Source: Bacteroidales bacterium (GTDB lineage: Bacteria; Bacteroidota; Bacteroidia; Bacteroidales; UBA3824). Taken from it: a stretch of 64,000 nt of DNA. How positions within the stretch are numbered: the first letter of the stretch is position 1; each line of letters opens with the position of its first letter. Shown piece after piece: positions 928-41,425 of this stretch. A program made the position numbers and the translations under genes. Where the stretch lies: positions 1,524 to 65,523 of the forward strand of contig JAGCRY010000126.1 in the NCBI GenBank assembly GCA_017964465.1, in the 5' to 3' direction. The notes below the pieces were generated by a model. That model was not told where the DNA came from, ran no database searches, and worked only from the letters and a program-made list of their open reading frames with translations.

Positions 928-2871
928 ATGAAAAGATTGTTCCTGATATTGGCGTTATGGTTTGATTTCACGCTCGTTATGGCGCAGACTCCACAGGCTA
1001 TATGGACTGAGGATAATTCCACGCTCACTTTTTATTATGGTGTGCTTTATCAGCCTGGCGATGATTTCAAAGGGCACAAGGTCACACGTGTATGGAGCGG
1101 CGATCGTTTCAATGACATCGAAAACCGACATAGGCGCAGCTTGTCAGATGAATATTATTGGCTTGTGCCGGGGTGGGTGGCGGAAGATGTCTATGTGGAT
1201 GACGATGGCAATCAAGTGACTGAATATTGCGACGTTAGCACAAAGATTGTCACTGCAATTTTTGATGATTCATTCCGAAATTATAAAATCAAGCACACTC
1301 AATGGCTCTTTGAGCATTGTTCCAATATGACTTCCGTCCAAAAAATGGAAAACCTTTGCACAGACATTGTGACGGATATGCGTGGAATGTTCTATGAATG
1401 TGAATCTCTGTCGGAAATTGACCTCAGATACCTCAATACTTCAAATGTCGAAAACCTTTCATACGCTTTTGCCGGCTGTAAGTCGTTGAAAAAGATTGAT
1501 TTGAGCCATCTAAACACTTCAAATGTGACCGATATGAGGGGACTGTTTTTTGAATGTGAAACGCTCACGGAGATTGACGTAACGCCGCTCAACACAAAGA
1601 ATGTGAAAGACATGGCGGGCATGTTCGCTTCATGCAGTTCTCTAAAAACGCTCTATCTTGCTGATTTGAATGTCAGGAGCGTAAATGATTTCACGTCGAT
1701 GTTTGAGGATTGTAGCGCGTTGGAGAAGATTTATTGTGACAAGGACTGGAAATCCATTCGCCCGTCCGCCGATTATGAATTTTTGTTTACAAACTGTGAT
1801 AATCTTGTTGGTTTTGTGCCTTACGACGAATCTGAAACTGGCATTTCAATGGCAAATCCCAAAAAATATTTCACGTGGGATTGCATTATGATTGAAAAAA
1901 AATCATTTGACCAGGGCGTCAAGTGGGCAGATTCTCCTATAAATCCAATGGAAACTCACATGGACATTAAACAGTCGGGCAATTTCTCGTATTATATTGA
2001 TGGTAAGAATGTTACATCTGCAATCGCCGAGCCTGGAAAATATAATGTAAAAATCCGTTTTCAGTCTAATGACGGCGAAATCGACTATTCGCAGGATTTC
2101 CAAATCACTGTCATTGAGTTGCCATACATAAAGGCGGACTTTGACGAGACAGTGCGCAGTTATTGTGGCGGCGAGGAGGTTGAAATTAAGTTTTCAAACA
2201 TTCGCAACGTGAAGCCTGACAAGTATTCAATATATTTTTCTGCTCCTGTCTTCATGGAGGAAAACGATGCAACTTTTGATGGTGAAAAGATTGTATTCTC
2301 CATACCTTCAAATCTCCAACAAGGTGACTATCAGGCGTTTTTTACGCTGAAAAACTCTGAAGTCCAGAGCGATGAGATGGTTTTGAAGTTCAATATTGGT
2401 AACCGCAGCTTGAAAACGAAATGGGACGACGTGGTTTACATTCCAAATCCTCAAAACCTTTATGTGAAATATCAGTGGTTCAGGGATGATGAGGAAATTT
2501 TTGGAGCGAAGAAACAGTTTTACAATGAGTTGGACGGTCTCAATGGCACTTATTATGCGATTGTCACCGACACTGACGGCAACGAGTTCAAGACTTGTTC
2601 GCTCGAAGTCACCAAACAAATTGTCAATTCTGCGCCGCGTGTTAACGTGTTCCCGAATCCAGCCGTCGCAGGCGAGCAGATAACGTTACAACTTGAAAAC
2701 ATTGACATTTCCAATGGAGTTGAACTTTTGATTTTTACGTCGTCTGGTTCATTCATAAAGCGCATCGAAAATGCCCAACATACTAATTATCTGACGCTTT
2801 CAAAGGGTGGATACATGGGTTATGCAGTTTATGACGGCGAAAAAATTGCATTTAAAATTATGGTGGAATAA
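928..2871 (+). CDS. DUF285/BspA-type leucine-rich-repeat surface protein with T9SS type-A C-terminal sorting domain
   Basis: Signal peptide [20 protein letters not shown]. Tandem ~26-aa repeats NTSNVxxMxxMFxxCxSLxxIDLxxL. C-terminus [18 protein letters not shown]...FKIMVE is Por_Secre_tail-like. The track ORF starts at TTG 904; ATG 928, just before the signal peptide, is preferred. Confidence 0.8.
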
Positions 2872-2887
2872 CAAAAATTTATGGAAA

Positions 2888-9337: not shown

Positions 9338-10585
9338 TTATAATGCGTTATTCCAATCATCCCAAAATTTTGGGTAAGATTTTGCGACTGATTCGGCGTC
9401 CTCGATTGTGACAGGGGCGTCGGCGTTGAGCGACATAACAGCCAAAGCCATCGCCATTCTGTGGTCGTGGTGAGCCGAGACGGTGACGCCGCCGTGGATT
9501 TTGCCGCCGTGGATTAACATTCGGTTTTCGTTTGATGTAATGTCAACTTTGATGCCAAGTTTCTCAAACTCCTCGGCGATGGATTGAGCGCGGTTGCTTT
9601 CCTTGTGGATGAGGCGTTGAGTGCCGGTTATCTCGCTGATACCGTTGCAGTTAGCCGCCAAAGCCGCCAACACGGGAAACAGGTCGGGCGCGTCCGTTGC
9701 GTCAAATTCAAACGCTTTTAAATTTTTCGTCTTGCGGGTGATGATTGTCATGCTGTCAATCTCCATATTTGCGCCGCAGTTCCTCAATACCTCAATAATT
9801 GCCTTGTCTGCCTGTAATGAGTTGCAGTTCAAACCGTTAATGACAGCCTTGCCGCCTATTGCGCCAGCCGCGAGATGTGCCGCCGCGCTGCTCCAGTCGC
9901 CTTCAACGAAATATTTGCAACCGTCGTAATGTGCGATTGGTTTGATGTAAATTTCCTTGAAATCAAAATTGTAGATTTCGCCGCCGAACTGTTTGACGAT
10001 TTCTATCGTCATTTCAACGTATGGCCGGCTGTTGATTGCGGACAAGACGAGGTGGGAGGACTTGCTGGCTCTTGGAAGAGCGATGAGAAGTCCTGAAAGG
10101 AATTGAGAACTTTTTCCGGCGTCCACAGTCGCCTCGCCGCCCTGCAATATTCCTGTTGTATGCACAGGCGCACAATGGTCTGTGAGCGTGGCAGTTACGC
10201 CGAGTTGTTTCAATGGAGCCACCATTTCATCCACGGGACGTTTCAGCAGAGTGCCGCCGCCAGTGATTGTGATGCCAGAACGCAGGAGCGAACATATTGG
10301 AGTATAGAGCCTTAGACCCAAACCCGCCTCGCCGACATTCACTGTGTCAGCCACGGTTTTGGATTTTCTCATGATTTCCACTCTGTCTTTAAACTCCTCC
10401 ACCTCGCATCCGAGCGCACGCGCAACGCCAAGCCCTGCCCGTGAATCGTTGCTGAAGTCGGGGTTGAAAATTGTGGTTTTGCCGTCGGCGAGCGCGGCTA
10501 TTGCCACGGCGCGTTGCATGTAACTTTTTGACGGCGGTATGGTGAGTTCGGCGTTATATGCCGAAGGTGTCAACGATTTGTTCAT
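9338..10585 (-). CDS. aroA: 3-phosphoshikimate 1-carboxyvinyltransferase (EPSP synthase)
   Basis: The length and motifs (PPSKSYMQRA, GEAGLGLR, LLKRP, HHDHRMAMA) are typical of EPSPS. Its stop lies 2 nt from the mrdA start. Confidence 0.9.
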   Translation of the reverse strand: MNKSLTPSAYNAELTIPPSKSYMQRAVAIAALADGKTTIFNPDFSNDSRAGLGVARALGCEVEEFKDRVEIMRKSKTVADTVNVGEAGLGLRLYTPICSLLRSGITITGGGTLLKRPVDEMVAPLKQLGVTATLTDHCAPVHTTGILQGGEATVDAGKSSQFLSGLLIALPRASKSSHLVLSAINSRPYVEMTIEIVKQFGGEIYNFDFKEIYIKPIAHYDGCKYFVEGDWSSAAAHLAAGAIGGKAVINGLNCNSLQADKAIIEVLRNCGANMEIDSMTIITRKTKNLKAFEFDATDAPDLFPVLAALAANCNGISEITGTQRLIHKESNRAQSIAEEFEKLGIKVDITSNENRMLIHGGKIHGGVTVSAHHDHRMAMALAVMSLNADAPVTIEDAESVAKSYPKFWDDWNNAL

Positions 10586-12807: not shown

Positions 12808-15800
12808 TCATGAAATTCTCAGTCCCATTATTGTTATGTCGTCGCGCTGTTCCACGCCTTCCATGAACTCGTCAATGGTCTCCTCGATGGTCTGTTTCTG
12901 ACCTTTCATTTCGAGTTTGCTGACGTATTCAATGGTTTTCACAAACCTCACTCTGCCGAAACGCTTTCTGTCCTTGTTGTTCTGGTCGATGATGCCGTCG
13001 GAGGTCATGTAGATAGCGTCGCCAGGGTTTGCCGTGAGGCTGTGGCGTGTGAAGGTCTTGTCCTTGATGTTGTTAAATCCGCCAATCGACATACGGTCGG
13101 CGGCGATTGTTTCAACCTCGTTTGTCTCTGATTTATAATGATATAACGAGTTTTTCGCGCCGGCATATACAATGTTGCGGTATTTCCCATCCTCGTCGCG
13201 GTCAAAGCGGCATAAAGCCATGTCGAGTCCGTCGTCATTGCCGTTTTTCTGCTGGTTTAGGGCGTTGACGATTTCTTTGTCGAGGTTTGAGAGGATTTGC
13301 TCGGGTTCATAGAGCTTGTTGCGGATGATGAGGTCGTTCAAAAGGATGTTGCTAATGAGCGACATGAACGCGCCAGGCACGCCGTGCCCCGTGCAGTCGA
13401 TTACGGCGGCAAAGATTTTTTCGGGTTTCGTCCTGTCTGAGCCTATGGTCTTGAACCAATAGAAATCGCCGCTCACAATGTCTTTCGGGCGGAAAATCAC
13501 CATCGCGTTGAAGTATTTGTTTATGAAGTTTTCATGCGCGAGGATTGCGTCCTGAATGGTTTTTGCGTAGCGTATGGAGCCGTTTATTGCGTTGTTTTTG
13601 ATTTGGAGCTGGTGGTAGTCCTTGGCTTTTTCGAGCGCGATGCTCAGGTATGAAGCCATCATTCGGATGTTTGCGCGGTCGGATGTTGAGTATTTTCCTT
13701 CGGCGAAACATCCAATGGTCACGATGCCGTTTGCACGCGACGCCTCGCGTAGTGGAATGACGAACAACGTGCCGAGGGTCTTGTCTTCAATTGTGTGGAA
13801 GAGGGAATTTTCAGTGCCTGTGTAGGAGTCTTCGTTTGAATTGAAACACAAAGCCTCAGTCGTCTCGCTTGTTATGTCCGTGGATTGCGGCGGCATCTGC
13901 TGCCCCTCAAAGTATATGTAATCGAACTCGAGCGCGTTTTTGGACGGACTGTATTTGCCGACCGCCATGAGGTCCATCTTTGTAACCATCTTGATGTGGT
14001 TGTAGGCGGTTGTGATGATTGTGGCGGTGTCGAATGAACTTGTAATCTGACGGCTCAAGTCGTTGAGTATGAGGGTGCTGTTGAGCGATTTTTCAACCTC
14101 CTCTTTTTGGATTTCGAGCGATACATTAGCCATCACGAGGTCTTCAGTGCGTTTCTTGACGGTCAGTTCGAGGTTTCGTTGGCGTTGGAGCGTTGAGCGG
14201 TTTCTCATCCTTCCAAATGCCACTATCGTCGCCAGGGCTGCTAAAATGGCAAGTCCAATCATCAACGGATGTCGCCACAGCGGACGTTCAACAATGATTT
14301 TCAGCGGTCTTACGTCCGATTCCACGCCGTCGGCGTTGCGGCATTTTATGAGGAATACATACTCGCCGTAGTCGAGGTTTGTGAAAACAGCCTCGTGGCG
14401 CGAGCCTATGTCTGTCCACTTGTCTTCATAGCCTCTCAGCATGTAGGAATAGCGGTTTCCAGCTTCGCCGAGATAGTTGAGGGTTGTGAATTGGATTATG
14501 ATGGTTTTTCCACGTTTGCTGTCGAGGACGATTTGGTCGGTGGCTTCGGGCGCTTTGTCACTGAGGATTGTGTCGAGTTGACGCTGGTTTTTTTCATTGT
14601 CATCATATTCGAGCATCAGCCTTGTGATTGTTGGCGGGGGGAGATTGAAGTCGATTCGGATGTCGGTTGGGGTGAAGTATGTGAAGCCGTTGGACGCTCC
14701 AAAATACATTATGCCGTCCTTGTCCTTGTGGGCGGCGTGTTGCAGGAAATTGTCGGCAAGAAGCCCGTCCGAGGAATGGTATGTCCTTACGACACGTCCG
14801 GTCTCAGGGTTGAATTTTGAGATGCCGTTTGCCGTGGAGATCCACAGACAATCTGTGCGGTCGTCGGAGAGTATGCCTTGTATGACGTCGCTGAGCAGAC
14901 CGCAGTCTGTGTCGTAGGTTTTGAAAGTGCCTTTTGTTGGGTCAAACAAGTCGAATCCGGCGTTTGTAGCCACCCAAATTCTCTGTTTTGCATCAATGCA
15001 GAAATGCACAACCCAATTGTGGCTGAGGGTTGTGGAGTCGTCATCGTTGCTTTCGTAGTTTGTATATGTTTGTTTTTCAGGGTCGTAGATTGACATGCCG
15101 TTTGTAGTGCCAATGAGGATTTTCCCAAAATGTTCGGCGAGCGTGATGCCCCATACACTTGCAATCGACGAGCCGTCCGCCCCTTGGTTGACGTTTCGGA
15201 ATTTGCCTTTTGCGGGGTCTTCGAGAAGATACAATCCTTCGCCGTTTGTCAACACCCAGACGCGGTTTTTCGTGTCGCATAGGATTGCGACGGTGTGGTC
15301 GCTATGGAGCGCGTCAGGATTGTTGCGGTCGATTTTGTATTCGTCTATGGTTTTAAGGTCGGGGTGTATGCGTGTCAGGCTGCGGTTATAGCCGCCGTTG
15401 TAGCAATATCCTTTTTGGTCGAACGCTATGGCATGTACCGACGACATTACAATCCTACCGTTCTTGGTTTCTTTGGTGTCGAACGTGGCGAGTGGCGTCG
15501 GGCTGCCTTTGCGCCAGAATGTGATGCCGCCGCCGTAGGAGCCGATTGCAATCGTGTCGCCGTGGGAGTCGAATGAAGAAATGAACCTTTTTTCGGGTAT
15601 CACGGTTGATGATGTGCAGTTGGCGTTATGGAACACCTTGCATGGTTTTAATGTGGTGTAAGACAGACCTTTCCATGTGCCGAACCACAACAGCCCCTGA
15701 TTGTCTTCACAGATGTCGGACGTGGTGGGGGAGTTGATGCTGAAAGACGAGCGGGAGGGGGAGGCCTCCACTTTTTGCAGCGTTTTTGTCGTAAAGTTAT

Positions 15801-16719
15801 ACGTGAAAAGTCCTGTGCTCATCGTTCCAATCCACAGTGTGCCCTGACTGTCCTTGAAAAGGCTTCGGGTGTCATGGGCGGGGAGGATATTGAGGTTTTG
15901 GGCGTCGAGGTCGTGGAACTTGTTATTTTTTTCGTCATAGACAATCAGTCCGTTGTCGCCGCCAAAAAAATATTCACCTTTGCCGTTGTCGAGGAAGCAG
16001 TTACTGCCTTTTGTTGGCGTGCGGTCGCCGAGGTCACCGCATGGTATCGAGAGGAGCGTTTCGCCGTTGATGTCAACCTTAAAGATTGTATTTTCTTTTT
16101 CTGACAGCATCCAGAAACAGTCCGAGGAGTCCTTGTGGCAGTAGCGGATTTCATGGTTGTGGAAAAAAGTCGAGAAAGCCGGTTTGAATGATTTTTCCTC
16201 GCTGTCATATTTATGGAGTCCGTGGTATTGAGAAAAGTAATATATGTGGTTTCCATTATCCATGAAAAGGTTGTCAGCCTGGTAGCTGTTGTTGTTTACA
16301 GTGCCGACAGAGCCATGCCGTGGAATGTAGGAGAAGCGGTCTGTGTAAATGTCGAATTTTGAGACGCCCTTTTCGGTGGCAATCCACACATTTCCGTCTG
16401 CATCCCGTCTGATGTCCGCCACGGAATTTCCAATCGCCGTGTTGAGGTTCCCTTTGTTTTTCGAGGATGACATTTGGACAAATGAAAGCCCGTCATAACG
16501 CTCCAGACCGGTCTTTGTGCCAATCCATATATACCCGAAGGCATCCGCCTCGATGCAAGTAACGACCTCGTTGTTCATGCCGTTTTGCTCGTCGATGGTA
16601 TGGAACATAATCTCGTCCTGCGCCCGTGAGCCGGTAGAGGCTAACGTCGCAATTATTAAAGCGATGATTGATATTATATTGGTTTTCAAATGTGTCATTG
16701 TCATAAATCTCCTTCCCAC
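12808..16719 (-). CDS. Periplasmic beta-propeller/Y_Y_Y sensor with TM, GAF and PP2C-type (SpoIIE) phosphatase domains
   Basis: Signal sequence, then many two-component-regulator propeller repeats (GLxxYD, WIGT, GLxxF). Next come a Y_Y_Y-type Ig region (RYSYMLRGYEDKWTDIG..YVFLIK), one TM helix (LMIGLAILAALATIVAF), a coiled coil and a GAF-like block. The C-terminal SpoIIE motifs are VSGDFYWF, DCTGHGVPGAFMS, DGLDMALC and TSDGIIDQ. Confidence 0.8.
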   Translation of the reverse strand: MGRRFMTMTHLKTNIISIIALIIATLASTGSRAQDEIMFHTIDEQNGMNNEVVTCIEADAFGYIWIGTKTGLERYDGLSFVQMSSSKNKGNLNTAIGNSVADIRRDADGNVWIATEKGVSKFDIYTDRFSYIPRHGSVGTVNNNSYQADNLFMDNGNHIYYFSQYHGLHKYDSEEKSFKPAFSTFFHNHEIRYCHKDSSDCFWMLSEKENTIFKVDINGETLLSIPCGDLGDRTPTKGSNCFLDNGKGEYFFGGDNGLIVYDEKNNKFHDLDAQNLNILPAHDTRSLFKDSQGTLWIGTMSTGLFTYNFTTKTLQKVEASPSRSSFSINSPTTSDICEDNQGLLWFGTWKGLSYTTLKPCKVFHNANCTSSTVIPEKRFISSFDSHGDTIAIGSYGGGITFWRKGSPTPLATFDTKETKNGRIVMSSVHAIAFDQKGYCYNGGYNRSLTRIHPDLKTIDEYKIDRNNPDALHSDHTVAILCDTKNRVWVLTNGEGLYLLEDPAKGKFRNVNQGADGSSIASVWGITLAEHFGKILIGTTNGMSIYDPEKQTYTNYESNDDDSTTLSHNWVVHFCIDAKQRIWVATNAGFDLFDPTKGTFKTYDTDCGLLSDVIQGILSDDRTDCLWISTANGISKFNPETGRVVRTYHSSDGLLADNFLQHAAHKDKDGIMYFGASNGFTYFTPTDIRIDFNLPPPTITRLMLEYDDNEKNQRQLDTILSDKAPEATDQIVLDSKRGKTIIIQFTTLNYLGEAGNRYSYMLRGYEDKWTDIGSRHEAVFTNLDYGEYVFLIKCRNADGVESDVRPLKIIVERPLWRHPLMIGLAILAALATIVAFGRMRNRSTLQRQRNLELTVKKRTEDLVMANVSLEIQKEEVEKSLNSTLILNDLSRQITSSFDTATIITTAYNHIKMVTKMDLMAVGKYSPSKNALEFDYIYFEGQQMPPQSTDITSETTEALCFNSNEDSYTGTENSLFHTIEDKTLGTLFVIPLREASRANGIVTIGCFAEGKYSTSDRANIRMMASYLSIALEKAKDYHQLQIKNNAINGSIRYAKTIQDAILAHENFINKYFNAMVIFRPKDIVSGDFYWFKTIGSDRTKPEKIFAAVIDCTGHGVPGAFMSLISNILLNDLIIRNKLYEPEQILSNLDKEIVNALNQQKNGNDDGLDMALCRFDRDEDGKYRNIVYAGAKNSLYHYKSETNEVETIAADRMSIGGFNNIKDKTFTRHSLTANPGDAIYMTSDGIIDQNNKDRKRFGRVRFVKTIEYVSKLEMKGQKQTIEETIDEFMEGVEQRDDITIMGLRIS

Positions 16720-20862: not shown

Positions 20863-21507
20863 ATGTTGTACGTATGCTTGTCGGCGGAAGGCGTGGAGAA
20901 CGCCCTCCGTCAACTTGGCGACGAGAAGTGCGCCGAGTTGCGTGTGGATTTGGTTAAGCCGTCGATGGACGAGATGGTGAAATTAGTTTCCAAAAAGGAT
21001 TTCAGTTTTATCGTGACGTGCCGTCCGGGAGTTTTCGATGAGGAGACTTCACTGAAATACTTGGCGACCGCCGCAAAACATGGCGCGGACTATATCGACA
21101 TTGAGATTGAACGCGGCGCGGAGGTTGCTTCAAGAATGAAAGCCGCCTGTGAAGGCTCGGGATGCAAATTGATTATTTCATATCATAATTTTGAATGTAC
21201 TCCGTCTTTTGAAGAGTTGAGAAAAATCATAATGGAATGTCGTGGACGCGGCGCGGATATTGTGAAAATCGCGTGCAAGGTAAATTCCACGGCAGACAAT
21301 TCAACTTTGATGTCGCTATATGGCGAAGGCGAAGGGATTGTGGCTTTCGGAATGGGGACGCTTGGTCAGGTTTCGAGGCTTGCGTCGCTTGGATGTGGAG
21401 CAAAGTTTACATACGTCGCTTCAGATTTTGGTGATGGCACTGCGCCCGGTCAGCTCAACGTTTCACAGATGAGGAGGTATGTCAATGAATTAGGAATTAA
21501 GTTGTAG
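20863..21507 (+). CDS. aroD: Type I 3-dehydroquinate dehydratase
   Basis: ELRVDL, ISYHNFECTP, DIVKIACK (catalytic Lys context), GxxGQVSR, APGQL. Confidence 0.8.
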   Translation: MLYVCLSAEGVENALRQLGDEKCAELRVDLVKPSMDEMVKLVSKKDFSFIVTCRPGVFDEETSLKYLATAAKHGADYIDIEIERGAEVASRMKAACEGSGCKLIISYHNFECTPSFEELRKIIMECRGRGADIVKIACKVNSTADNSTLMSLYGEGEGIVAFGMGTLGQVSRLASLGCGAKFTYVASDFGDGTAPGQLNVSQMRRYVNELGIKL

Positions 21508-21519
21508 TTATTATTTTTG

Positions 21520-22011
21520 TTATTTTCCTTGCGCTTGGGACGAGTTCTCGAGTGCAAGGATTTTTTGTGTATTGAGGATTGTGACGATTTTGTCCTCATG
21601 GTTATATACACCTTCCGAGAGAGAAGCGTCGATGTGGGAGTCGAAATCGTTTATTGGGATGATATCTATTGGTTTTATGCTTATTACGTCGCTGACCCTT
21701 TCTACGATTGCACCCGCAATGAGATGTAAATCAGCGTCTTCCTTGTTTGTCTCCAAAACGATTATTGCGCAATCTTCGTCGGCGACAGGCTCGTGTATGC
21801 GCGTGAGGTGGCATTTCGCCATTACGTCGATAGCCGGCAGGATTTCACCGCGAAAATTGAAAACACCTTTTATATAATGGTCACATTGTGGTATGGCGGT
21901 TATTTTTGGACGCTCTGTCACCTCCACGACGTTATTGATGCTGAATGCGTAGAGTTGGTCGTCGAGCCAAAACGACAAGTATGGAGTGGCTCCGCTGTAG
22001 TTTTCCATCAT
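21520..22011 (-). CDS. cheW: CheW-like coupling protein
   Basis: Single CheW domain: YLSFWLDDQLYAFSINNVVEV...IKGVFNFRGEILPAIDV...IAGAIVERVSDVISI...DKIVTILNTQKIL. Confidence 0.8.
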   Translation of the reverse strand: MMENYSGATPYLSFWLDDQLYAFSINNVVEVTERPKITAIPQCDHYIKGVFNFRGEILPAIDVMAKCHLTRIHEPVADEDCAIIVLETNKEDADLHLIAGAIVERVSDVISIKPIDIIPINDFDSHIDASLSEGVYNHEDKIVTILNTQKILALENSSQAQGK

Positions 22012-22032: not shown

Positions 22033-24123
22033 TTATTTTTTTAGGTATTTGATGAGTTTGTTCGTGTCGAGGACGAGTGCGATGCTGCCGTCGCCAAGCA
22101 CGCTGCCGCCGGAGAGGTATTCCTGGTTGCTGAAATATTTGCCCAACGACTTCAAAACGGCTTGATGCTCGCCGTGAACCTTGTCAAGGACGATGCCGAC
22201 GCGTGAATCCTTGTATTTAACCATGACTGCAATGCGTTCTTCGGGCGGAGTTCCGCTTATATTGAAGAATGTCCTCATGTCGAGTATGGGCAGCGGCTCG
22301 CCTTCATGGATGATGCGTCCTTTACTTTCGTCAACGTCCTTGTGTCTGATGTGGATGCAACTGTCTATTACATAGACAGGTATGAGAAGTTGAGTCTCCG
22401 CCACAGAAACGAGCAGCGCATCCACGATACTTAACGTGAGGGGAAGTTTGATGGTTGTGATTGTTCCCAAATCACATTCACTGTCCATTTCAATTTCTCC
22501 ACGAAGTTTCATGATGCTTTGTTTCACAGCGTCCATGCCTACTCCACGCCCTGAGATGCCTGTGATTTTCTGCGCCGTGGAGAATCCGGGCAGGAAAACG
22601 AGGTCGAAAAGTTGGCGGTTTGTGGGATGGTCGGTGGCTTTTATGAAGTTTTTTTCTATAGCCTTTTTCCTTAGGTATTCCGGGTTCATGCCTGCTCCGT
22701 CGTCCTGGACTTGGATGAAGACATTGTTTCCAGAATAGAACGCCGTGAATTTTATGATGCCGTGGTCGGGCTTTTTGAGTTCCCTTCGGCGTTCCACGGA
22801 TTCAATTCCATGGTCGATGCTGTTGCGGATGATGTGCATGAGGGGCACGGCGAGGTTGTCGATTATGGTCTTGTCGAGTTCCGTGTCTGTGCCTTCTGTC
22901 ACGAAGTCCACTTGTTTGCCGAGTTCTTTTGAAAGGTCGCGCACAAGCCTCTGAAATCTCAACATCAGGCTTTCAATAGGCACAAGACGTATAGACAAGG
23001 CGTTGTCTTTCAGTTTGTTTGAAAGTTTGTCAACCTTTTCGTAGATGTCGTGGAGTTCAGGAATGTCATATTTGTCGGCGATGAGAAGCATCTCCGCCTT
23101 TGTGTTCACAAACTCCGAGACGAGGTTCATCAGTTCGTCGAGTTTTTCGGAATCGACCTTTATGCCTGAATTTTTCGTGTCTGACGCCTCGATGTTTTTT
23201 GCAATGATTTTGCGCTCCGACTCTGCATTGTGGTTTGGTGCTGCGACGGGCACAGGTTGCTGGATTTGAGGCGGTTGGGGCTGTTGTGGTTCTGTGGATT
23301 CCGGCTGTTGAGGTTGGAGCAGTTGAGAGATTGCTTTGAGTTCGGCTGTGTCAATCGGGGTTTCTATGAGTTGGTATGTGGCGAGTTGCTCTTTGAAATC
23401 CTCACTTGAAAACAGGTCAATGTCGGCGATTTTTTCGAGTTTGACCTCGTCATGGACAAACAGGAAAATTTCTTCGAGTTCATTGAAAGGCAGTTCAGTG
23501 GCGAACACAGCCTCCCAATACATGTAGAACTTTCCATTGTCCGCCTGGTCGTCGCGCCATGAACGTGTGAAAATCGTGTTTTCACCGAGATCCTTGATGC
23601 TGTTCAGTATTCCTTTTATGTTCACGCCACGGTTTGTGATGTCGGCTTCCGGCGCAAACATCATGTAATATGTGCAGATGTTTTTTTGGGGAGGAAGGTC
23701 GCCGCCGTTTTGTGAAGTGTTATTGGATTGTGTGCGGTTGTCAGTGCCATTTATCGCCGCAACCCGTGCCAAAAAGTCGTTCACAAGCGCATCGTCGCCG
23801 TCCTCTGGCTGGTTCAGAAGATGGCGTAACAAGTCCACGCACTCGAGGGTCAGTGTGCTAACGTCCTTGCTTACTGAGCCTTGGGTGTCGCGAATCTTGC
23901 TGTAGATACTTTCAACGTCGTGGGTTATCTTTTCGACAGTCTTGAAGTCGTACATCGCGCTTGTTCCCTTGATGGTGTGCATCACTCGGAACACTTGGTT
24001 TATCTCGTCGATGCTGGATGGGTTTTGCTCCAATGTGAGAATCGCCCCTTCCATTTCGTTGAGCATGTCGTTGACTTCCTCGACGTATTTGAGTTTGAAT
24101 TGCTGTAAAGACGGCTGTGACAT
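22033..24123 (-). CDS. cheA: CheA-type histidine kinase (Hpt, unknown ~170-aa region, Q/P linker, dimerisation domain, HATPase, CheW-like domain)
   Basis: Hpt phospho-site context FRVMHTIKGTSAMY. Dimerisation region IKVDSEKLDELMNLVSEFV. ATP-binding boxes HIIRNSIDHGIE, DDGAGM, GFST, GRGVGMD. C-terminal CheW-like domain LLVSVAETQLLIPVYVIDS...GSIALVLDTNKL. Confidence 0.85.
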   Translation of the reverse strand: MSQPSLQQFKLKYVEEVNDMLNEMEGAILTLEQNPSSIDEINQVFRVMHTIKGTSAMYDFKTVEKITHDVESIYSKIRDTQGSVSKDVSTLTLECVDLLRHLLNQPEDGDDALVNDFLARVAAINGTDNRTQSNNTSQNGGDLPPQKNICTYYMMFAPEADITNRGVNIKGILNSIKDLGENTIFTRSWRDDQADNGKFYMYWEAVFATELPFNELEEIFLFVHDEVKLEKIADIDLFSSEDFKEQLATYQLIETPIDTAELKAISQLLQPQQPESTEPQQPQPPQIQQPVPVAAPNHNAESERKIIAKNIEASDTKNSGIKVDSEKLDELMNLVSEFVNTKAEMLLIADKYDIPELHDIYEKVDKLSNKLKDNALSIRLVPIESLMLRFQRLVRDLSKELGKQVDFVTEGTDTELDKTIIDNLAVPLMHIIRNSIDHGIESVERRRELKKPDHGIIKFTAFYSGNNVFIQVQDDGAGMNPEYLRKKAIEKNFIKATDHPTNRQLFDLVFLPGFSTAQKITGISGRGVGMDAVKQSIMKLRGEIEMDSECDLGTITTIKLPLTLSIVDALLVSVAETQLLIPVYVIDSCIHIRHKDVDESKGRIIHEGEPLPILDMRTFFNISGTPPEERIAVMVKYKDSRVGIVLDKVHGEHQAVLKSLGKYFSNQEYLSGGSVLGDGSIALVLDTNKLIKYLKK

Positions 24124-24140: not shown

Positions 24141-24917
24141 TTATTGGAGAGCCCTCTTTATGAACGAGAGGAACTTGTCAATGACAAACGGCTTCTGAAT
24201 CCATCCAGTAATGCCAATCTGTTTGGATTTCTGGCGTTTTTCCTCGTTGATTTCCGTCGTGAGCAGGAGAATCGGGATGCTCCTGTAGGTCGGGATGCTC
24301 TTCACAGTCTCTGCAAGTTCAAGTCCGTTCTTGCGCGGCATGTTGAGGTCTGTGACGAGCAGGTCGATTTTCCGTCCGTCAAAGTATTTCAACGCGTCTT
24401 GACCGTCGGTTGCTTTGAGCACCTCATATCCAGCCTGTTTGAGTGTGAACTCGATGACGAATCGGGTGTTCTCAAAGTCGTCGGCGATGAGGATTGTCTT
24501 CTTTGAGTTCTCGTCGGTGTTCTTTTCCGGCGAAATCTCCTTGCTGAAGAAAACTTCCGCCCTCGGGTTCTGGAGTATCTGGCGGAAAATCTGCGAGTTG
24601 TCGCTGAGTTTGAGAAGGTATCCACGCGCTCCGGCTTCGATGAGGTCGTTGACATACTTCTTGTTGTCATACATCGAGAGGCCGATGATGACGAGCGACG
24701 GGTTCTTTTTGAGCGCCTCTTTTGTTGCCTCGATGCCGTTCATCTCCGGCATTTCGATGTCTATGAACACGAGGTCCGGGTCGCACTCGTCGAGGAGTTT
24801 CAGAAATTCCACGCCGTTTGATGCTTCGGCGATGATTTCAACGTCGCCGAGTTTCTGCAGCAGGGTCTTGATTGCGTTCCTGTAAACGAGTTTGTCGTCC
24901 ACTAATATAATTTTCAT
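24141..24917 (-). CDS. Dual-receiver (REC-REC) response regulator without an output domain
   Basis: REC1: MKIILVDD...DLVFIDIEMPEMNGIEA...IIGLSMY...GARGYLLK (NarL-type receiver features). REC2: KTILIADD...DLLVTDLNMPRKNGLEL...PILLLTTE...GITGWIQKP (CheY-type). No HTH or enzymatic domain. ATG 24917 is preferred; the track start at 24947 is possible. Confidence 0.8.
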   Translation of the reverse strand: MKIILVDDKLVYRNAIKTLLQKLGDVEIIAEASNGVEFLKLLDECDPDLVFIDIEMPEMNGIEATKEALKKNPSLVIIGLSMYDNKKYVNDLIEAGARGYLLKLSDNSQIFRQILQNPRAEVFFSKEISPEKNTDENSKKTILIADDFENTRFVIEFTLKQAGYEVLKATDGQDALKYFDGRKIDLLVTDLNMPRKNGLELAETVKSIPTYRSIPILLLTTEINEEKRQKSKQIGITGWIQKPFVIDKFLSFIKRALQ

Positions 24918-24949
24918 GTTTTTCAGTCTGTTTATTATTGTTAACAATA

Positions 24950-26809
24950 TTATTCCTTAGTTATGTAAGCCTCGTTAGGCAGTTCGATGTCCACTTGGAC
25001 GCCGTTGCCAGGCGAGGACTTGAATTCGCATGTGCCGTCGAGGGCTTTTGCTCGTCCCATGATGTTCGATATGCCCATCGTTGTGCTTTCGGACGATGCA
25101 AGGTGTTTTTCAACGTCGAAACCAATGCCGTCGTCGGCGTAATGGATTTTCAGCGTTGGGCCTGTGGAGTCCAGCGTCAGGTAAACATTTTTGGCTTCGG
25201 CATATTTCATCGTGTTGTTTATCAACTCGTTGATGATTCTGTATAATGACAGTTCGCGGGCTTTGTCTTTGAGTTCCGTGAAATTTTCATGGTCGAAATG
25301 GAAGTTAATCAGGTGGGAACTCTGGAGACCTTCAATGATGTTGCACACTGTCGCCACAAGTCCAAACCTTGTCAGGATGACTGGATGCAGGTTGTTGGCG
25401 ATGTCCTTCACGTTCTCTATAGCCTGTCCCACGAGGTCTTTCGTCAGGCGCAAGGTCTTGAATATTTCGTCGATTTCCGCGCCGCCTGAAAGAATGAGGT
25501 TTATGTAGATGTTTATGCTCGACAAAACCGCGCCGAGTCCGTCATGGAGCTCCTGCGCAAGTAAGGTGCGTTCGCGTTCCTCCGCCGCCTGTGAAGCGTT
25601 CATGATTTCGTTGTCCATGTTTCGGAACTGCGTCACATCGCTGAAAATGAGCATCAGGCTTGCCTCGCCGGTAGTCTTTAGCATGGAGGCGGTGATTTCA
25701 ATGTATGTTTTTGTGCCGTCGGGGTTTTGGATTGTTGTCTGTGTCGTTTCAAAAATCGGCGGCTTGTCAACCTTCGACACAAGTTCCTCGATGATTTCCA
25801 TTTGTTTTGCGTCGAGGATTTTGTTGAGCGGAGAGCCTGTGCAGTTGATGTTGCGCCTGATGCCGAACAATTCCAGGAACCGCCTGTTGTAGCGGTGGAT
25901 ATGGAGGTCGAGGCTTGTCGTGAGTATGCCTTTCGCGCTGTATTTGAAAATGCTTGCAACTTCCTTTTCAAGTTTGAGGAGCTTGAGTTCGAGGTCGCGG
26001 CGCGTTGCTATGTCGTCGCTGCCTCCCGTTTCGATTGTGCGCGTCTTGATTGCTATGTATTCATTTAGCCCTTCATACTCATTGAGCGGTATTGCCGTGG
26101 TTTCGAGTATGGCGGGTTCGCTGTCCCTTTTGCGTTGAGAGATGTATCTCGATGGCGCGGTCGTCGGCGATGAGGCGATTTGTGCAAAAATTTCGCGCTC
26201 CTGATCGGAGAGTGGTATTTCAGATATGTTTCGCCCGTCGATGACTGTGCCAGATGGCAGTCCGAGGATTGAGCCGGAGGATTGGGTCGCGGCGGCGATT
26301 GTACCGTCCGGGCGGCACAAAATCACAGATTCGCTTGCATGGTCGCTGATGACCTGAAGTACGGCTGCCTTTTCCAAGGCGTTGTCGCGCTGTTCGGTGA
26401 GTTTGCGGATTTTTTCAGTTATGGCTTCCGACGGTCTTGAAGCGTCGATGCGTCGGCGGATGCGGATTTGGAGTTCTGTGGTGCTGAACGGCTTGCATAG
26501 GTAGTCGTCCGCACCTGCCAGGAATCCAGTCGCAATGTCGTCGGATGTGTTACGGGCGGAGATGATGATAATCGGGATTTGTTGGGTTGCTGGGTTTGCT
26601 TTGAGTTCGCTGCATATCGTAAGGCCGTCCTTGCCGGGCATTAGCACGTCGAGGAGAATCAGGTCTGGCTTTATGCTCGTCGCCTGGTTTTCCGCGATTG
26701 TGCCGTCCGAAAGCGTCACGACGTCATATTCCTCGCTGAGCATCGCCTTGAGCATCACGAGGTTAACGTCGTTGTCGTCGATGGCAAGTATTTTGTCTTT
26801 CTGGTTCAT
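24950..26809 (-). CDS. Receiver-PAS-PAS-HisKA_3-HATPase_c hybrid sensor kinase
   Basis: N-terminal REC (KILAIDDNDVN...DLILLDVLMPGKDGL...PIIIISA...DDYLCKPF). Two PAS-like blocks. H-box LAQELHDGLG (HisKA_3, NarX/DegS type). ATP-binding boxes NELINNTMKYA, DDGIGF, GISNIMGRA. ATG 26809 forms an ATGA overlap with the recX stop; the track start at 26836 is possible. Confidence 0.8.
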   Translation of the reverse strand: MNQKDKILAIDDNDVNLVMLKAMLSEEYDVVTLSDGTIAENQATSIKPDLILLDVLMPGKDGLTICSELKANPATQQIPIIIISARNTSDDIATGFLAGADDYLCKPFSTTELQIRIRRRIDASRPSEAITEKIRKLTEQRDNALEKAAVLQVISDHASESVILCRPDGTIAAATQSSGSILGLPSGTVIDGRNISEIPLSDQEREIFAQIASSPTTAPSRYISQRKRDSEPAILETTAIPLNEYEGLNEYIAIKTRTIETGGSDDIATRRDLELKLLKLEKEVASIFKYSAKGILTTSLDLHIHRYNRRFLELFGIRRNINCTGSPLNKILDAKQMEIIEELVSKVDKPPIFETTQTTIQNPDGTKTYIEITASMLKTTGEASLMLIFSDVTQFRNMDNEIMNASQAAEERERTLLAQELHDGLGAVLSSINIYINLILSGGAEIDEIFKTLRLTKDLVGQAIENVKDIANNLHPVILTRFGLVATVCNIIEGLQSSHLINFHFDHENFTELKDKARELSLYRIINELINNTMKYAEAKNVYLTLDSTGPTLKIHYADDGIGFDVEKHLASSESTTMGISNIMGRAKALDGTCEFKSSPGNGVQVDIELPNEAYITKE

Positions 26810-27270
26810 ATCAGCGTCGTTATCACTTCTTTGCAAATTTCAATGCTGTATCCTCTCGAAACTCCAAACCGCATGAGTTTCTCCCATATCTTTTGTTTCG
26901 GCTCGTCACCTTTTATACCCCGCAATTTTTTTGCCATTTCGTCGGCTACCGTCTGCTTTTCATGTTCCGTGTCTATGGCGTTTTCGAGTGCGGCGTTTAT
27001 GATTTGAGCCGGTATATGTTTCATTTTTAGCGCGTTGGCAATTTTTTTCGAGCCCCATCTTGAAAACCTGAACTTGTCGGCGGCGAAGGCTTCCGCGTAC
27101 CGTGCGTTGTCTATGAACTTGTTTTCGGTCAGGTATTCAACTGCGGCTTCCGCATCTTCCTGGCTTGCGCCGTGAGAGAGCATATACTCCATGGCGTCAT
27201 GTTCACATTTTTCACTGCGTGAGCATAATGCCGTTAACCTTCTGAGTATTATTAAGTTGCCTGCGTCCAT
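26806..27270 (-). CDS. recX: RecX-like regulatory protein
   Basis: 154 aa of three-helix repeats. LCSRSEKCEHDAMEYMLSHG...AVEYLTENKFIDNARYAEAFAADKFRFSRWGSKKIANALKMKHI is typical of RecX. Confidence 0.75.
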   Translation of the reverse strand: MDAGNLIILRRLTALCSRSEKCEHDAMEYMLSHGASQEDAEAAVEYLTENKFIDNARYAEAFAADKFRFSRWGSKKIANALKMKHIPAQIINAALENAIDTEHEKQTVADEMAKKLRGIKGDEPKQKIWEKLMRFGVSRGYSIEICKEVITTLI

Positions 27271-38212: not shown

Positions 38213-41200
38213 CTAACACTTGAATCCGATGATGATTATGTCGTCGGTTTGTTCGGTGTTGCCGTCCTTTATCCATTTTTCGATTGTGTCGTTCAGTATT
38301 TCGCGCTGTTTAGCCGGCGGTTCGTTATGAATCTGCATGAACAGAGCGCGGAGGTTCTTGATGAGGAACTTCGTGTTGTTTTCGCCGCCGAACTGGTCTT
38401 TGTAGCCGTCGGAGAACATGTAGAACCATGTGTTGCCGTCGGGCTGGATTGCGACTTTTTTGTACTGGAAATCCGCGCCGTAGAGCTGCTGTCCGCCGAT
38501 GCTCTGTTTGTCGGCTTTGTATTCGGTGAGTTCGTCGTTTTGGATGACTACGAGCTGGTTTTTCGCGCCGGAATATTCAACGAGGTGCGTTTTCTTGTCG
38601 ATTGTGCAGAGCGCCATGTCCATTCCGTCCTGGTTTGCGGTTGTGTCCTGTTTGAGGGCTTTGCGGATTCGGCGGTTTTGGTTTGTGAGGATTTCTTCGG
38701 GGGATGTAATGCCTTCCACGACTATTTCCGTCAGTATCTGAGAGCCAATCATGCTCATGAATGCGCCCGGCACGCCGTGACCTGTACAGTCTGCGGCGGT
38801 GATGATGATGCTTTTTTCGGTTTCGGCGAACCAATAGTAGTCGCCGCTGACGATGTCCTTGGGGCGGAATAGTATGAAATGTTCGGGGAGTGCGGACTGG
38901 ATTTTTTCTTCCATCGGCAGCATGGCGGTCTGTATGCGCTGTGCATACCTGATGGAGTCGGTGATTTCCTTGTTTTTGGCAGTGATTTCCTCGTTTTTCT
39001 CCATGATGAGCTGGCTCTGTTTGCGTATTTCAGCTGTGCGTTCCTCCACGATTTTTTCGAGTTTCTCCTTGTCGCGTATGAGCTTTTTTGTGTAAGCCTT
39101 CACGAACAACCAGATGGCGAGGGCGAACAATGCAATGTAGAGCAATATGGCAAGTTTGGTGAGGTACCATGGGGCGAGGATTTCAAATGTTATTGTTGCC
39201 TCTTTACTCTCGACATTGTAAGCATTGATTGCGATTACGTGCAAGGTGTATTTGCCGGGGCTGAGGCTGGGGTACTCCTTGTAGTTTTCACTGCGGAAGT
39301 CAGACCAATTAACGTCGTTGTTTTCGAGGTAAGACTTAAATTTGATAGCTTCCGGATATTCGTATGTTGTGGCTGCAAACTTAATCCTGATGCTTCTCTC
39401 TGAAAATGGCAGTACAATTTTTTTGTTGGTTTCGTTGCCACCATAAATCAGAGAGTCGTTATGGATGAGTTCGATTTTCCTGATGAGAGCATTATATGGT
39501 GCTTCGACATTCTTTTCGATTCGGTCGTCGTAATGGACAAAACCTTCCTTGTCACCAATGATGTAGCATCCTTCGCCGATGTATCCAAACGAGTTTATGC
39601 GGCTCATGTATGGACGGAAAATGTTGCGTGTGATTTTTGCCGACGTGTCGCCCATAGGCGTTATACGCTCAAGAAACCAATAGTTTATGTTTTCGTCGTG
39701 CTTGTCGGTGACCACGTGTTTTACCCACAGGTTGCCGATGTTGTCGTTGTACATCATGTCGTAAACATTTTTTCCGCCGAGCGCAGTGTTGTGTTCCTCG
39801 TCTTGCACGTACTTATCGGAATCTCTATCGTATTTGTATAGTCCGTCCACCGTTCCCGCGATAAGTCCGTTGCCGGTGTTGAAGATGTAGTTGCCGAAGT
39901 TGGAAGGCAGGCCACCTTCGTCAGCGTCGTATTTTTTGCTGGCAACGATGGAATCGAATGTCTCGTTGAACTTGACCCTGAAAATGCCCTTATTGTTGTC
40001 GGAGATTACAAACCATCCGTCCGCGTCCTGCTGGATGTGGCGGACGTATTCGTTGAATCCTTTTGCACCGGTCTTATATGCCCATTTGCCGTTCTTTTTT
40101 TCGTAGATTGCAAAACCGGCGTTGGAGCCGCCGATGAGGATGTCCGGTTTTTCGCGAGGTACGATGAAATTTCGGATGTTTCGTGTCTTCTCCTTGTCGA
40201 TGTTGGTGAGTACGTTGTTGGTGTCGATGTACAACAAGCCTTTCTGTGCGCCGCCAATCACAGAGCCTTGCACTGTGTCGAGTTTCCAAATAGCGTACCG
40301 CTCGTTTGTGTTCTTTACTTCCTTGAAAAATTGTTTGTGGATAGAATCCTTTTTGATATGGAATACGGCATCTGCGCCGATATAAAGCTCGTCGCGGGTT
40401 TGCAGGATTGACCTGACAGAGCCGACAATGCCCGTCTCGTCGTTTGAATACCATGTGAAGGGCGAGAATACGTCAAGCAGGACGATGCCATTGTTGGAGG
40501 TCGTGATCCAAACAAGATGGTTGTCGTCCTCGAATATGGAGTAGATCTGGCCGTTGATGTCGTCGGTCCTTATAACATTGAAATCAAGGTCGGTGACCAC
40601 AAGACCGTGCCATGATGTTCCTAAGAGGTAATACTTGCCGTCGTGGGTCTTGGCAAAGCACGAAACGTCCGCGATGATGTTTTTTGGCAATGAAACATTT
40701 GGCTGGTAGAGAGAGTCGCCTTCGTAATAATAGATTCCTCTTTCTTTGTTGAGGATTACAATCCTTCCCTTCGACTTGTCCACAAGACGGATGGAAGTTG
40801 TGCCGGCATGGAAAAGGTAGTCAATTTTGGTCAGCTTTCCATCTTTAATTTCGTTGATGCCTTCTTCGCTGTCGATGACATATAATTTTCCGTCGACATT
40901 ATATGCAAAACAGAATCCACGGTTGTCTATTGCCGGAATGACGGTCATTGTGTTGTCCTTGAGGATGTATATGCCGGTCTGCGCCACAAACACAACGCCT
41001 TCATCGGGATCAATCATGATGTTCTGCACGAATGAAATACTGGAGTTTTCTTCCGGAATCATGTCCGCTAAGCTTCTGTATACGTATGCGCCCGCATCAT
41101 TTGTTTCGAGCAGGCCGATGTCGCCCCTCGAACCTACGTAAACCGTATTTGAAGCGGTGTCGATGGCAAGTGCCCTGACCGCATTTGTGGCGGTCTTTAT

Positions 41201-41425
41201 TAGGTTCCAGTTTGAACCGTCAAACATAAGGACACCGGCTTCGTTGGCAAAGAACATGATGCCGCGATTGTCTTTTACAGCACATAAAACCTGGTTTGAT
41301 GGAGTCTTGTAATCGTCTTTTGTGTAGGTGTGCATATACAATTCTCCACCGCGCTTTATTTGCGCCTCTGCCCACATCGGCAGCGTTAATATGATGATTG
41401 TCAGTAATATAACTATTCGTTTCAT
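38213..41425 (-). CDS. Periplasmic beta-propeller/Y_Y_Y sensor with TM and PP2C-type (SpoIIE) phosphatase domains (paralog of 12808-16719, no GAF)
   Basis: Signal peptide MKRIVILLTIIILTLPMWAEAQ, then propeller repeats, a Y_Y_Y block (FKSYLENNDVNWSDF...YTLHVIAIN), TM helix LAILLYIALFALAIWLF and a coiled coil. SpoIIE motifs: VSGDYYWF, DCTGHGVPGAFMS, DGMDMALC, FSDGYKDQ. Confidence 0.8.
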   Translation of the reverse strand: MKRIVILLTIIILTLPMWAEAQIKRGGELYMHTYTKDDYKTPSNQVLCAVKDNRGIMFFANEAGVLMFDGSNWNLIKTATNAVRALAIDTASNTVYVGSRGDIGLLETNDAGAYVYRSLADMIPEENSSISFVQNIMIDPDEGVVFVAQTGIYILKDNTMTVIPAIDNRGFCFAYNVDGKLYVIDSEEGINEIKDGKLTKIDYLFHAGTTSIRLVDKSKGRIVILNKERGIYYYEGDSLYQPNVSLPKNIIADVSCFAKTHDGKYYLLGTSWHGLVVTDLDFNVIRTDDINGQIYSIFEDDNHLVWITTSNNGIVLLDVFSPFTWYSNDETGIVGSVRSILQTRDELYIGADAVFHIKKDSIHKQFFKEVKNTNERYAIWKLDTVQGSVIGGAQKGLLYIDTNNVLTNIDKEKTRNIRNFIVPREKPDILIGGSNAGFAIYEKKNGKWAYKTGAKGFNEYVRHIQQDADGWFVISDNNKGIFRVKFNETFDSIVASKKYDADEGGLPSNFGNYIFNTGNGLIAGTVDGLYKYDRDSDKYVQDEEHNTALGGKNVYDMMYNDNIGNLWVKHVVTDKHDENINYWFLERITPMGDTSAKITRNIFRPYMSRINSFGYIGEGCYIIGDKEGFVHYDDRIEKNVEAPYNALIRKIELIHNDSLIYGGNETNKKIVLPFSERSIRIKFAATTYEYPEAIKFKSYLENNDVNWSDFRSENYKEYPSLSPGKYTLHVIAINAYNVESKEATITFEILAPWYLTKLAILLYIALFALAIWLFVKAYTKKLIRDKEKLEKIVEERTAEIRKQSQLIMEKNEEITAKNKEITDSIRYAQRIQTAMLPMEEKIQSALPEHFILFRPKDIVSGDYYWFAETEKSIIITAADCTGHGVPGAFMSMIGSQILTEIVVEGITSPEEILTNQNRRIRKALKQDTTANQDGMDMALCTIDKKTHLVEYSGAKNQLVVIQNDELTEYKADKQSIGGQQLYGADFQYKKVAIQPDGNTWFYMFSDGYKDQFGGENNTKFLIKNLRALFMQIHNEPPAKQREILNDTIEKWIKDGNTEQTDDIIIIGFKC

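Follow-up and report, generated by a model that had tools for sequence, protein, structure and literature searches.

Regulators with two receiver (REC) domains in tandem are described as widespread but poorly understood (PMC13535131). Here we describe one such protein, REC-REC, which is encoded among chemotaxis-like (Che-like) genes on a 64,000-nucleotide stretch of DNA from a Bacteroidales bacterium (contig JAGCRY010000126.1; hereafter the window), and compare it with the closest described systems. The protein is almost certainly a chimera, in which a NarL-type receiver (REC1) is joined to a CheY-type receiver (REC2). We favor, with a probability of roughly 0.45, its being a dual-input regulator without an output domain, in which REC2 would be phosphorylated by CheA and REC1 by a HisKA_3 kinase encoded next to it.

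FrzZ, from the Frz system of Myxococcus xanthus, combines two linked receivers, the lack of an output domain, membership in a CheA/CheW system and action by protein-protein contact (PMC4546325), features that the window protein shares or, for the last, may share. The FrzZ context is likewise non-flagellar (gliding and pili), and both of its receivers can be phosphorylated (PMC4546325). It differs in that both of its fused domains are CheY-like and receive phosphate from the CheA protein FrzE, and in its restriction to the Cystobacterineae (PMC4546325), whereas the family of the window protein has a NarL-type REC1 with a NarL-type linker, belongs to the Bacteroidota and has a co-inherited HisKA_3 kinase. 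The family thus has the two receivers, the missing output domain and the chemosensory cluster of FrzZ, but not the CheY-like character of both receivers; set apart from FrzZ by the published description of that protein, it is an independent fusion.

In the Che3 system of Rhodospirillum centenum, CheA3 phosphorylates the receiver of the kinase CheS3, and CheY3 is phosphorylated only by CheS3 (PMC3868531). The window cluster likewise includes a second kinase, which has a PAS domain as well as an N-terminal receiver; by analogy, CheA3/CheS3/CheY3 is the closest system in wiring and offers the best precedent for a Che cluster in which phosphate passes through two kinases. Che3 differs in that CheY3 is a single-domain protein, CheA3 is a hybrid with a C-terminal receiver, and CheB3 and CheR3 are present, whereas the window module has two receivers of different families, a second kinase of the HisKA_3 type and, throughout the main clade of its family, no CheB or CheR.

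Tandem receivers regulated by phosphorylation also occur in DrdR (Xanthomonas campestris), RedD (M. xanthus) and the D1-D2 unit of PleD, the first two without an output domain. DrdR binds the motor ATPases PilB and PilT (PMC13507683). It is encoded by an orphan gene, and its N-terminal domain is a truncated (beta-alpha)4 pseudo-receiver (PMC13507683), whereas REC1 of the window protein is complete. RedD relays phosphate within a four-component system (PMC2755868) and lies outside Che clusters, whereas the window gene sits between two kinase genes. PleD has a GGDEF output domain and a degenerate D2, whereas the window protein lacks GGDEF and has two intact receivers. Dual-receiver regulators and multi-kinase Che-like circuits are already established; what distinguishes the present family is that it is a NarL/CheY chimera with a co-inherited HisKA_3 kinase, and both traits are conserved. 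Nothing relevant came from literature searches on Che systems of Bacteroidales or Bacteroidetes or on HisKA_3 kinases within Che clusters, and the role of Che-like systems in Bacteroidales appears uncharacterized.

Domain architecture of the REC-REC protein

24141..24917, minus strand: coding sequence of the REC-REC response regulator, 258 aa plus stop (two PF00072 matches in Pfam; start from homologs)
24567..24914, minus strand: REC1, aa 2-117, NarL/FixJ-type receiver (NCBIfam, nearest neighbors, identities, Foldseek)
24498..24566, minus strand: inter-receiver linker, aa 118-140 (alignment with REC-GerE proteins, NarL and MctR profiles, structure model)
24144..24497, minus strand: REC2, aa 141-258, CheY-type receiver (nearest neighbors, synteny, Foldseek)

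The mechanically called open reading frame (ORF; 24141..24947, minus strand) comprises 268 aa and opens at a TTG. Homologs open with MKIILVDD, which makes the ATG at 24917 the most likely true start and the protein 258 aa long. PF00072 is the only Pfam family in the protein, with two matching stretches (E=6.5e-49; 165 bits against a cut-off of 30.2). A GerE helix-turn-helix (HTH) domain (PF00196) was not found in the protein by Pfam, nor was any GerE-like sequence found in the window by tblastn. The whole protein therefore falls outside the NarL/FixJ definition, as it lacks the C-terminal GerE/LuxR-type HTH, and it reaches no NCBIfam equivalog cut-off. It equally falls outside the CheY definition, having 258 aa and two receivers as against a single domain of ~120-130 aa; with the E. 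coli-type CheY model (cut-off 189) it scores 98 bits in full and REC2 alone 63 bits.

The AlphaFold2 (AF2) model, computed from a 41-sequence family alignment, contains two (beta-alpha)5 folds with a mean predicted local distance difference test score (pLDDT) of 88 and of ~90 for each receiver. No fixed packing between the two receivers is predicted by AF2 (predicted template modeling score 0.54). The complete set of phospho-acceptor residues is kept in both receivers, and D53, K103, D190, K242 and P243 are invariant among 41 family members. The linker is ~23 aa long (residues 118-140), and its residues 129-137 are predicted to be disordered (pLDDT <50). Its first part, AEVFFSKEI, aligns with the 'G..YFS' motif that follows the receiver in REC-GerE proteins of the NarL family.

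Different origins of the two receivers

REC1 contains D7 D8, D53 (24759-24761), S81 and K103, together with the family-specific invariant motif 'LLKLSDN'. Taken alone, it scores highest in NCBIfam with MctR (87 bits) and NarL (84.5 bits), and both alignments reach through the linker (profile positions ~129-135). REC1 was searched against a collection of 5.8 billion proteins, with fragments of its own family set aside. About 90 of the best 120 matches are PF00072+PF00196 regulators of 209-226 aa (typically ~214 aa) from Bacteroidales/Bacteroidota, with 42-52% identity over 95-97% of REC1. These Bacteroidota REC-GerE regulators are 42-52% identical to REC1 and the early linker, in alignments that run through 'YFS'; they differ in carrying GerE where the window protein has its CheY-type receiver, and REC1 has DDK/DDQ rather than DDH, plus 'LLKLSDN'. 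Single-domain matches in Foldseek are LiaR (37% identity), DesR and LuxR-family receivers. The (beta-alpha)5 fold of REC1 is complete (pLDDT >90), and the DD pair, D53, S81 and K103 are conserved in the window's clade.

Derivation of REC1 from a CheB receiver was considered and rejected, since its identity is 20% to E. coli CheB and 26-37% to the CheB receivers of the loci studied, as against 43-52% to REC-GerE receivers, and the CheB receivers are placed elsewhere in the tree described below.

REC2 contains D146 D147, D190 (24348-24350), a Thr in LLLTTE, and K242-P243. Its W239 occupies the position of the CheY switch residue Y106, within the motif 'TGWIQKPF', which REC2 and solo CheYs share as 'TGW(I/L)QKPF'. 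The nearest proteins in the search are single-receiver proteins of 120-125 aa with 45-66% identity, many of them called CheY by the Joint Genome Institute. Gene neighborhoods of related loci (L-numbers) were taken from precomputed Pfam tables and from BLAST against reference domains. The solo CheYs of Bacteroidales and Desulfobacterales clusters (e.g. L006), 45-66% identical to REC2, are encoded immediately upstream of cheA in 9/9 contexts (L006 and 8 others), the same slot as REC2; these clusters differ from the main-clade REC-REC clusters in carrying CheR, CheD and CheB. Single-domain Foldseek matches are Vibrio cholerae CheY4 (the best, 38% identity, root-mean-square deviation (rmsd) 1.1-1.4 Å), CheY and RR468. 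Profile typing of REC2 by itself is generic (NCBIfam: PhoB 71 bits, CheY 63 bits), and its assignment as a CheY comes from its closeness to chemotaxis CheYs, its being encoded with CheA and CheW, and its intact phospho-site.

In a neighbor-joining (NJ) tree of 67 receivers, with E. coli CheY, CheB, NarL, UvrY and PhoB as labeled references, REC1 groups with NarL-type receivers (bipartition support 100/200, only 50%) and REC2 is interleaved with solo CheYs (103/200). Mean identities follow the same division: REC1 is 43% identical to Bacteroidota REC-GerE receivers and 26% to solo CheYs, REC2 is 44% identical to solo CheYs and to other REC2s (44%), and REC1 and REC2 are 22% identical across the family (30% within the window's protein). 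Tandem duplication of one CheY-type domain, the possibility that the initial annotation of this DNA had itself held against its reading of the protein, is rejected by the 22% identity, by the occurrence of a REC1+REC2 clade in 0/100 bootstrap replicates, and by nearest neighbors from different families. Viewed by descent, the protein is more aptly called the CheY of the cluster, extended at its N-terminus by a NarL-type receiver and a NarL-type linker.

The domain typing of the initial annotation is supported by this comparison. Every sequence motif it quoted is present in the protein, and its statement that the GerE HTH is replaced, after a linker of ~20 aa, by a second receiver agrees with the Pfam result and with the measured ~23 aa. 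Its NarL/LuxR style for REC1 is borne out by profile scores, nearest neighbors and tree placement, and its CheY style for REC2 by the match to stand-alone CheYs encoded upstream of cheA.

Single-domain relatives of REC1 were also observed. In L082, the gene just upstream of REC-REC (9484-9990) encodes a protein of 168 aa with one receiver, which nests within the REC1 clade of the NJ tree and is thus a stand-alone REC1-type paralog. Further REC1-like single-domain proteins of ~130-137 aa came from the database search (P0121, P0124, P0139 and P0212).

Family distribution and sequence constraint

The two-receiver layout of ~260 aa recurs in more than 100 clusters (at 90% identity), with identities down to ~44%, and a more distant clade lies at 31-37% identity. 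All named sources are metagenome-assembled genomes of Bacteroidales/Bacteroidota, with samples from rumen, goat, yak, horse and sediment. A metagenome scan gave at least ~6 further full-length members among the matches listed. Full-length matches in Desulfobacterales, Spirochaetales, Acidobacteria and Agrobacterium were discarded, as they are adjacent cheY and cheB genes without a fusion.

This distribution bears on whether the protein could be an artifact, a truncated NarL-type regulator and a cheY run together through faulty assembly or a frameshift error. All that speaks for such an error is that each half also exists as a stand-alone protein. We reject it, as the same ~260-aa fusion, with a conserved linker, recurs in more than 100 independent clusters that come from many samples and many assemblers, and as the reading frame is open and shows purifying selection between species.

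REC-REC is by far the most constrained gene of its cluster. Relative to L091, amino acid identity is 99.2% for REC-REC, 83% for the kinase, 83% for CheA, 82% for CheW and 74% for RecX; relative to L092, the corresponding values are 91%, 46%, 60%, 45% and 53%. Across the window, L091, L001 and L092, REC-REC is thus 91-99% identical and the neighboring genes 45-83%. The nucleotide identity of REC-REC to L091 is 88%, and 34-49% of identical REC-REC codons carry synonymous changes, a pattern that indicates purifying selection and not recent transfer. Mean identity within the family is higher for REC1 (60%) than for REC2 (44%). Constraint over the whole surface would fit a small hub protein that contacts several partners.

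In the distant clade (P0109-P0116), REC1 lacks the DD pocket and the Ser/Thr while the fusion is retained. The gene lies in a CheR-MCP-(CheD)-REC-REC-CheA-CheW-CheB operon in 3/3 contexts (MCP, methyl-accepting chemotaxis protein), and a HisKA_3 kinase is present in 0/3. An intact REC1 pocket is associated with an adjacent HisKA_3 kinase (Fisher p=0.01, without phylogenetic correction). Retention of the fusion despite a degenerate REC1 pocket is what would be expected if REC1 were a pseudo-receiver or scaffold, not phosphorylated in vivo, that serves as a dimerization or docking module for the CheY domain. The DrdR pseudo-receiver (PMC13507683) and the D2 domain of PleD, the latter among the Foldseek matches, provide precedents. 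For the window's clade this role is very unlikely, as the catalytic residues and complete fold of REC1 are conserved there and REC1 is the more conserved of the two receivers (60% versus 44%); a degenerate REC1 pocket is confined to the distant clade. A PleD-like pseudo-dimer is also unsupported, with poor superposition (rmsd 12-18 Å in Foldseek) on the REC-REC modules of PleD, 3mf4 and 3luf.

Gene cluster and the neighboring kinases

24950..26836, minus strand: hybrid sensor kinase, putative REC1 donor (Pfam, NCBIfam, adjacency)
26459-26791, minus strand: PhoB/PleD-like N-terminal receiver of the kinase, receiver Asp D63 in 'LILLDVLMP' (Pfam, NCBIfam)
25622-25951, minus strand: PAS domain of the kinase (Pfam)
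25379-25573, minus strand: HisKA_3 domain of the kinase, His431 at 25544-25546 (Pfam)
24974-25255, minus strand: HATPase_c domain of the kinase (Pfam)
22033..24123, minus strand: CheA, 696 aa, probable REC2 donor (Pfam, NCBIfam CheA models)
23854-24087, minus strand: Hpt/P1 domain of CheA, His49 at 23977-23979 (Pfam)
22990-23166, minus strand: dimerization domain of CheA (Pfam)
22435-22848, minus strand: HATPase_c domain of CheA (Pfam)
22048-22419, minus strand: CheW-like P5 domain of CheA (Pfam)
21520..22011, minus strand: CheW coupling protein, 163 aa, last gene of the cluster (Pfam PF01584, E=1.3e-23)
26806..27270, minus strand: RecX-like gene, upstream of the kinase and overlapping its start (Pfam RecX_HTH1-3)

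The window cluster is co-directional and reads RecX-like gene, REC-PAS-HisKA_3-HATPase kinase, REC-REC, CheA and CheW, with intergenic gaps of 32 nt (kinase/REC-REC), 17 nt (REC-REC/CheA) and 21 nt (CheA/CheW). CheA follows REC-REC, directly or past one MCP gene, in all ~20 loci where the contig continues, and CheW is present in all related clusters. CheB, CheR and CheD are absent from the main clade, of which some relatives have MCPs; the window cluster itself has no MCP, CheB or CheR. A P2 (CheY-binding) domain was not detected in CheA by Pfam; residues ~100-320, between the Hpt and dimerization domains, form a stretch of ~220 aa without a Pfam assignment, part of it Pro/Gln-rich. The RecX-like gene occupies the same position only in the closest relatives (L001-L004, L091-L093 and L174), and its functional membership of the module is doubtful.

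A HisKA_3 kinase adjoins REC-REC in 14/16 non-redundant main-clade loci. The kinase gene is immediately upstream in 10/14, separated by a REC-GerE gene in 2/14 (L171 and L082) and divergent in 2/14 (L084 and L173). No REC-GerE gene lies nearby in 11/14 of these loci, and REC1 is there the sole NarL-type receiver beside the kinase. Most kinases of the module bear the PhoB/PleD-like N-terminal receiver, and the window's kinase, likened by domain layout alone, resembles CheS3 in its REC-PAS-HisKA_3-HATPase order and its location beside CheA. Pairwise distances of REC1, REC2, the kinase core (dimerization/phosphotransfer and catalytic domains), CheA-P1 and the CheA core correlate across 12 loci (r=0.73-0.83), so that the kinase is a co-inherited part of the module.

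The H-box of the module kinases reads ELHDGLGA (~25529-25546), that of other Bacteroidota HisKA_3 kinases ELHDGLGP, and Acidobacterial HisKA_3 kinases keep the canonical H-D-x-x-G-Q. Loss of the Gln was considered as a sign specific to the module and rejected: the module has Ala and other Bacteroidota have Pro, and these kinases of the Bacteroidota seem to lack the Gln of the HisKA_3 phosphatase motif throughout the phylum.

The three loci with a REC-GerE gene bear on a reading in which REC1 would be a decoy that drains phosphoryl groups from the HisKA_3 kinase, phosphorylation of REC2 by CheA would tune its availability, and transcription through REC-GerE would be the output, throttled by the Che module. 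In L171 and L082 a REC-GerE gene separates the kinase gene from REC-REC, and in L084 one adjoins the kinase gene; REC1 resembles the REC-GerE receivers and has retained their linker. Receivers that act as phosphate sinks are well established for Che systems (PMC3868531), and RedD, a dual receiver, can hand phosphate to a kinase-like protein (PMC2755868). Such a connector or sink is nevertheless quite unlikely, given that REC-GerE is missing nearby in 11/14 loci and anywhere in the 64-kb window, and that conservation this extreme over the whole surface suggests a larger number of partners than a simple sink requires. Similarity of REC1 helix alpha-1 to the REC-GerE receivers of the same locus (L171, L082 and L084) was only slightly higher, in an anecdotal comparison made by eye.

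Proposed phosphate flow to the two receivers

We propose that CheA and the HisKA_3 kinase converge on REC-REC, with unequal confidence in the two branches. CheA likely phosphorylates REC2: its P1 domain (His49) would transfer to D190, as for the orthologous solo CheYs. Whether the cytoplasmic REC-PAS-HisKA_3 kinase (His431) phosphorylates D53 of REC1 is evenly balanced. HisKA_3 kinases normally pair with NarL-type receivers, and we infer this branch from that pairing and because REC1 is the sole such receiver in most loci. CheA may also gate the kinase through the kinase's N-terminal receiver, as CheA3 gates CheS3, which would make a possible third entry point for CheA. Since the protein has no output domain and has a flexible linker, REC-REC would act by protein-protein contact, as a two-input integrator or hub set by its joint phosphorylation state. 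It would serve a stripped-down Che-like module (CheA and CheW, with MCPs in relatives) of gut Bacteroidales, whose phylum is not known to have flagella. A candidate downstream target is the SpoIIE/PP2C-STAS partner-switching module that recurs near these clusters.

A more specific version, in which REC-REC is a coincidence detector, is tentative. Here the HisKA_3 kinase would feed the NarL-type REC1, and CheA would both feed REC2 and gate the kinase, in a three-receiver, two-kinase circuit with a non-flagellar or PP2C/STAS output.

Dual-kinase input had already been suggested in the initial annotation, and the comparative data are consistent with it. It gains from the adjacency of the kinase in 14/16 loci, mostly with no other NarL-type receiver, and from the decay of the REC1 pocket in the kinase-less clade. 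The mirror-tree analysis gave no pairing of donors, two loci (L081 and L172) lack an adjacent kinase, and in three the kinase has a REC-GerE partner. The CheA branch stands more firmly than the kinase branch.

Several observations weigh against dual input, favor a FrzZ-like arrangement or do both; in that arrangement, CheA would feed both receivers of a dual CheY-like output or amplifier, and the kinase would belong to a separate two-component system with its NarL-type regulator beside it or elsewhere. REC-REC is invariably next to CheA-CheW. In two loci of the main clade, L081 and L172, REC1 is intact and conserved to the same degree with no kinase gene beside the module. In L171, L082 and L084 the kinase has a REC-GerE partner of its own, and REC1 therefore need not be its main target. 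REC1 also scores 77 bits with CheY_Halo and 74 bits with the CheB receiver model in NCBIfam, nearly as high as with its leading models, and CheB receivers are CheA substrates. In the mirror-tree (partial Mantel) comparison the donors were not separated, with partial r of 0.58 for REC1-kinase and 0.40 for REC1-CheA-P1, and 0.49 and 0.40 for REC2. The 16 main-clade loci are phylogenetically non-independent and represent ~11 lineages, and the distant clade represents 2-3. MCP signaling domains are absent from the whole 64-kb window, and hence no receptor lies near the window's CheA and CheW. Finally, FrzE phosphorylates both D52 and D220 of FrzZ (PMC4546325).

We nonetheless regard the FrzZ-like arrangement as rather unlikely. 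REC1 is of NarL type and keeps a NarL-type linker, the kinase is adjacent in 14/16 loci and co-inherited, REC1 is the sole nearby NarL-type receiver in 11/14 kinase loci, and its pocket decays in the kinase-less clade even though CheA remains. Dual input by CheA and the HisKA_3 kinase is accordingly the reading we retain, at the probability given above.

Whichever donors apply, the family offers a conserved and tractable core of a Che-like system, comprising two kinases and one 258-aa regulator. If different kinase families do feed the two receivers, a chemoreceptor array and a cytoplasmic PAS-sensor kinase would be merged at one protein, unlike integration at the promoter level or through a shared Hpt relay. 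A coincidence detector, if confirmed, would be the first described node at which one output-less regulator receives a Che pathway on one half and a classical two-component pathway on the other. The fusion is also datable: CheY gained a NarL receiver and linker, CheB and CheR were lost, and the kinase was gained or retained, which would make the family a model for the rewiring of specificity.

Possible outputs and other genes

12808-16719 and 38213-41425, both minus strand: SpoIIE/PP2C genes of the window
L174 11789-14029, L094 15042-17267, L173 1936-4095, L003 1537-4755 and L179 1519-3366: SpoIIE/PP2C genes of related loci

Genes for SpoIIE/PP2C phosphatases that carry Reg_prop/Y_Y_Y or TPR sensor parts are found repeatedly in the vicinity of these Che-like clusters. 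They directly follow cheW on the same strand in L174 and L094. A BLAST screen found SpoIIE matches in 8/175 loci, of which 5/8 are REC-REC loci; the L179 gene comes from the Pfam table only. Partner switching of the SpoIIE/PP2C kind could be the output of the module. Weak STAS/SpoIIAA-like Pfam matches, below the gathering score, were seen in L006 (9537-9992, 27.7 bits) and L084 (15151-15552, 18.9 bits), and one of these two ORFs is directly upstream of a solo cheY. Together with the PP2C genes, the STAS-like ORFs hint at an output of the anti-sigma-antagonist type.

In L002, L003, L004, L092 and L093, whose REC-REC proteins are 84-91% identical to that of the window, an MCP gene of ~670 aa comes right after cheW. 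The window, where the cluster ends at 21507-21520, and its closest relatives L001 and L091 have no MCP gene there; aromatic amino acid biosynthesis genes come next, on the other strand.

Elsewhere in the window, 50278-52422 (plus strand) encodes a 714-aa HAMP-GAF-PAS protein in which Pfam recognized no output domain, and 59377-60540 (plus strand) a 387-aa protein with a receiver and a sigma-54 activator AAA+ domain (NtrC-type), in which Pfam found no C-terminal HTH. Two adjacent genes at 904-2871 and 2807-5146 (both plus strand) encode large surface proteins with BspA-type leucine-rich repeats (DUF285), the second with Pro-rich repeats.

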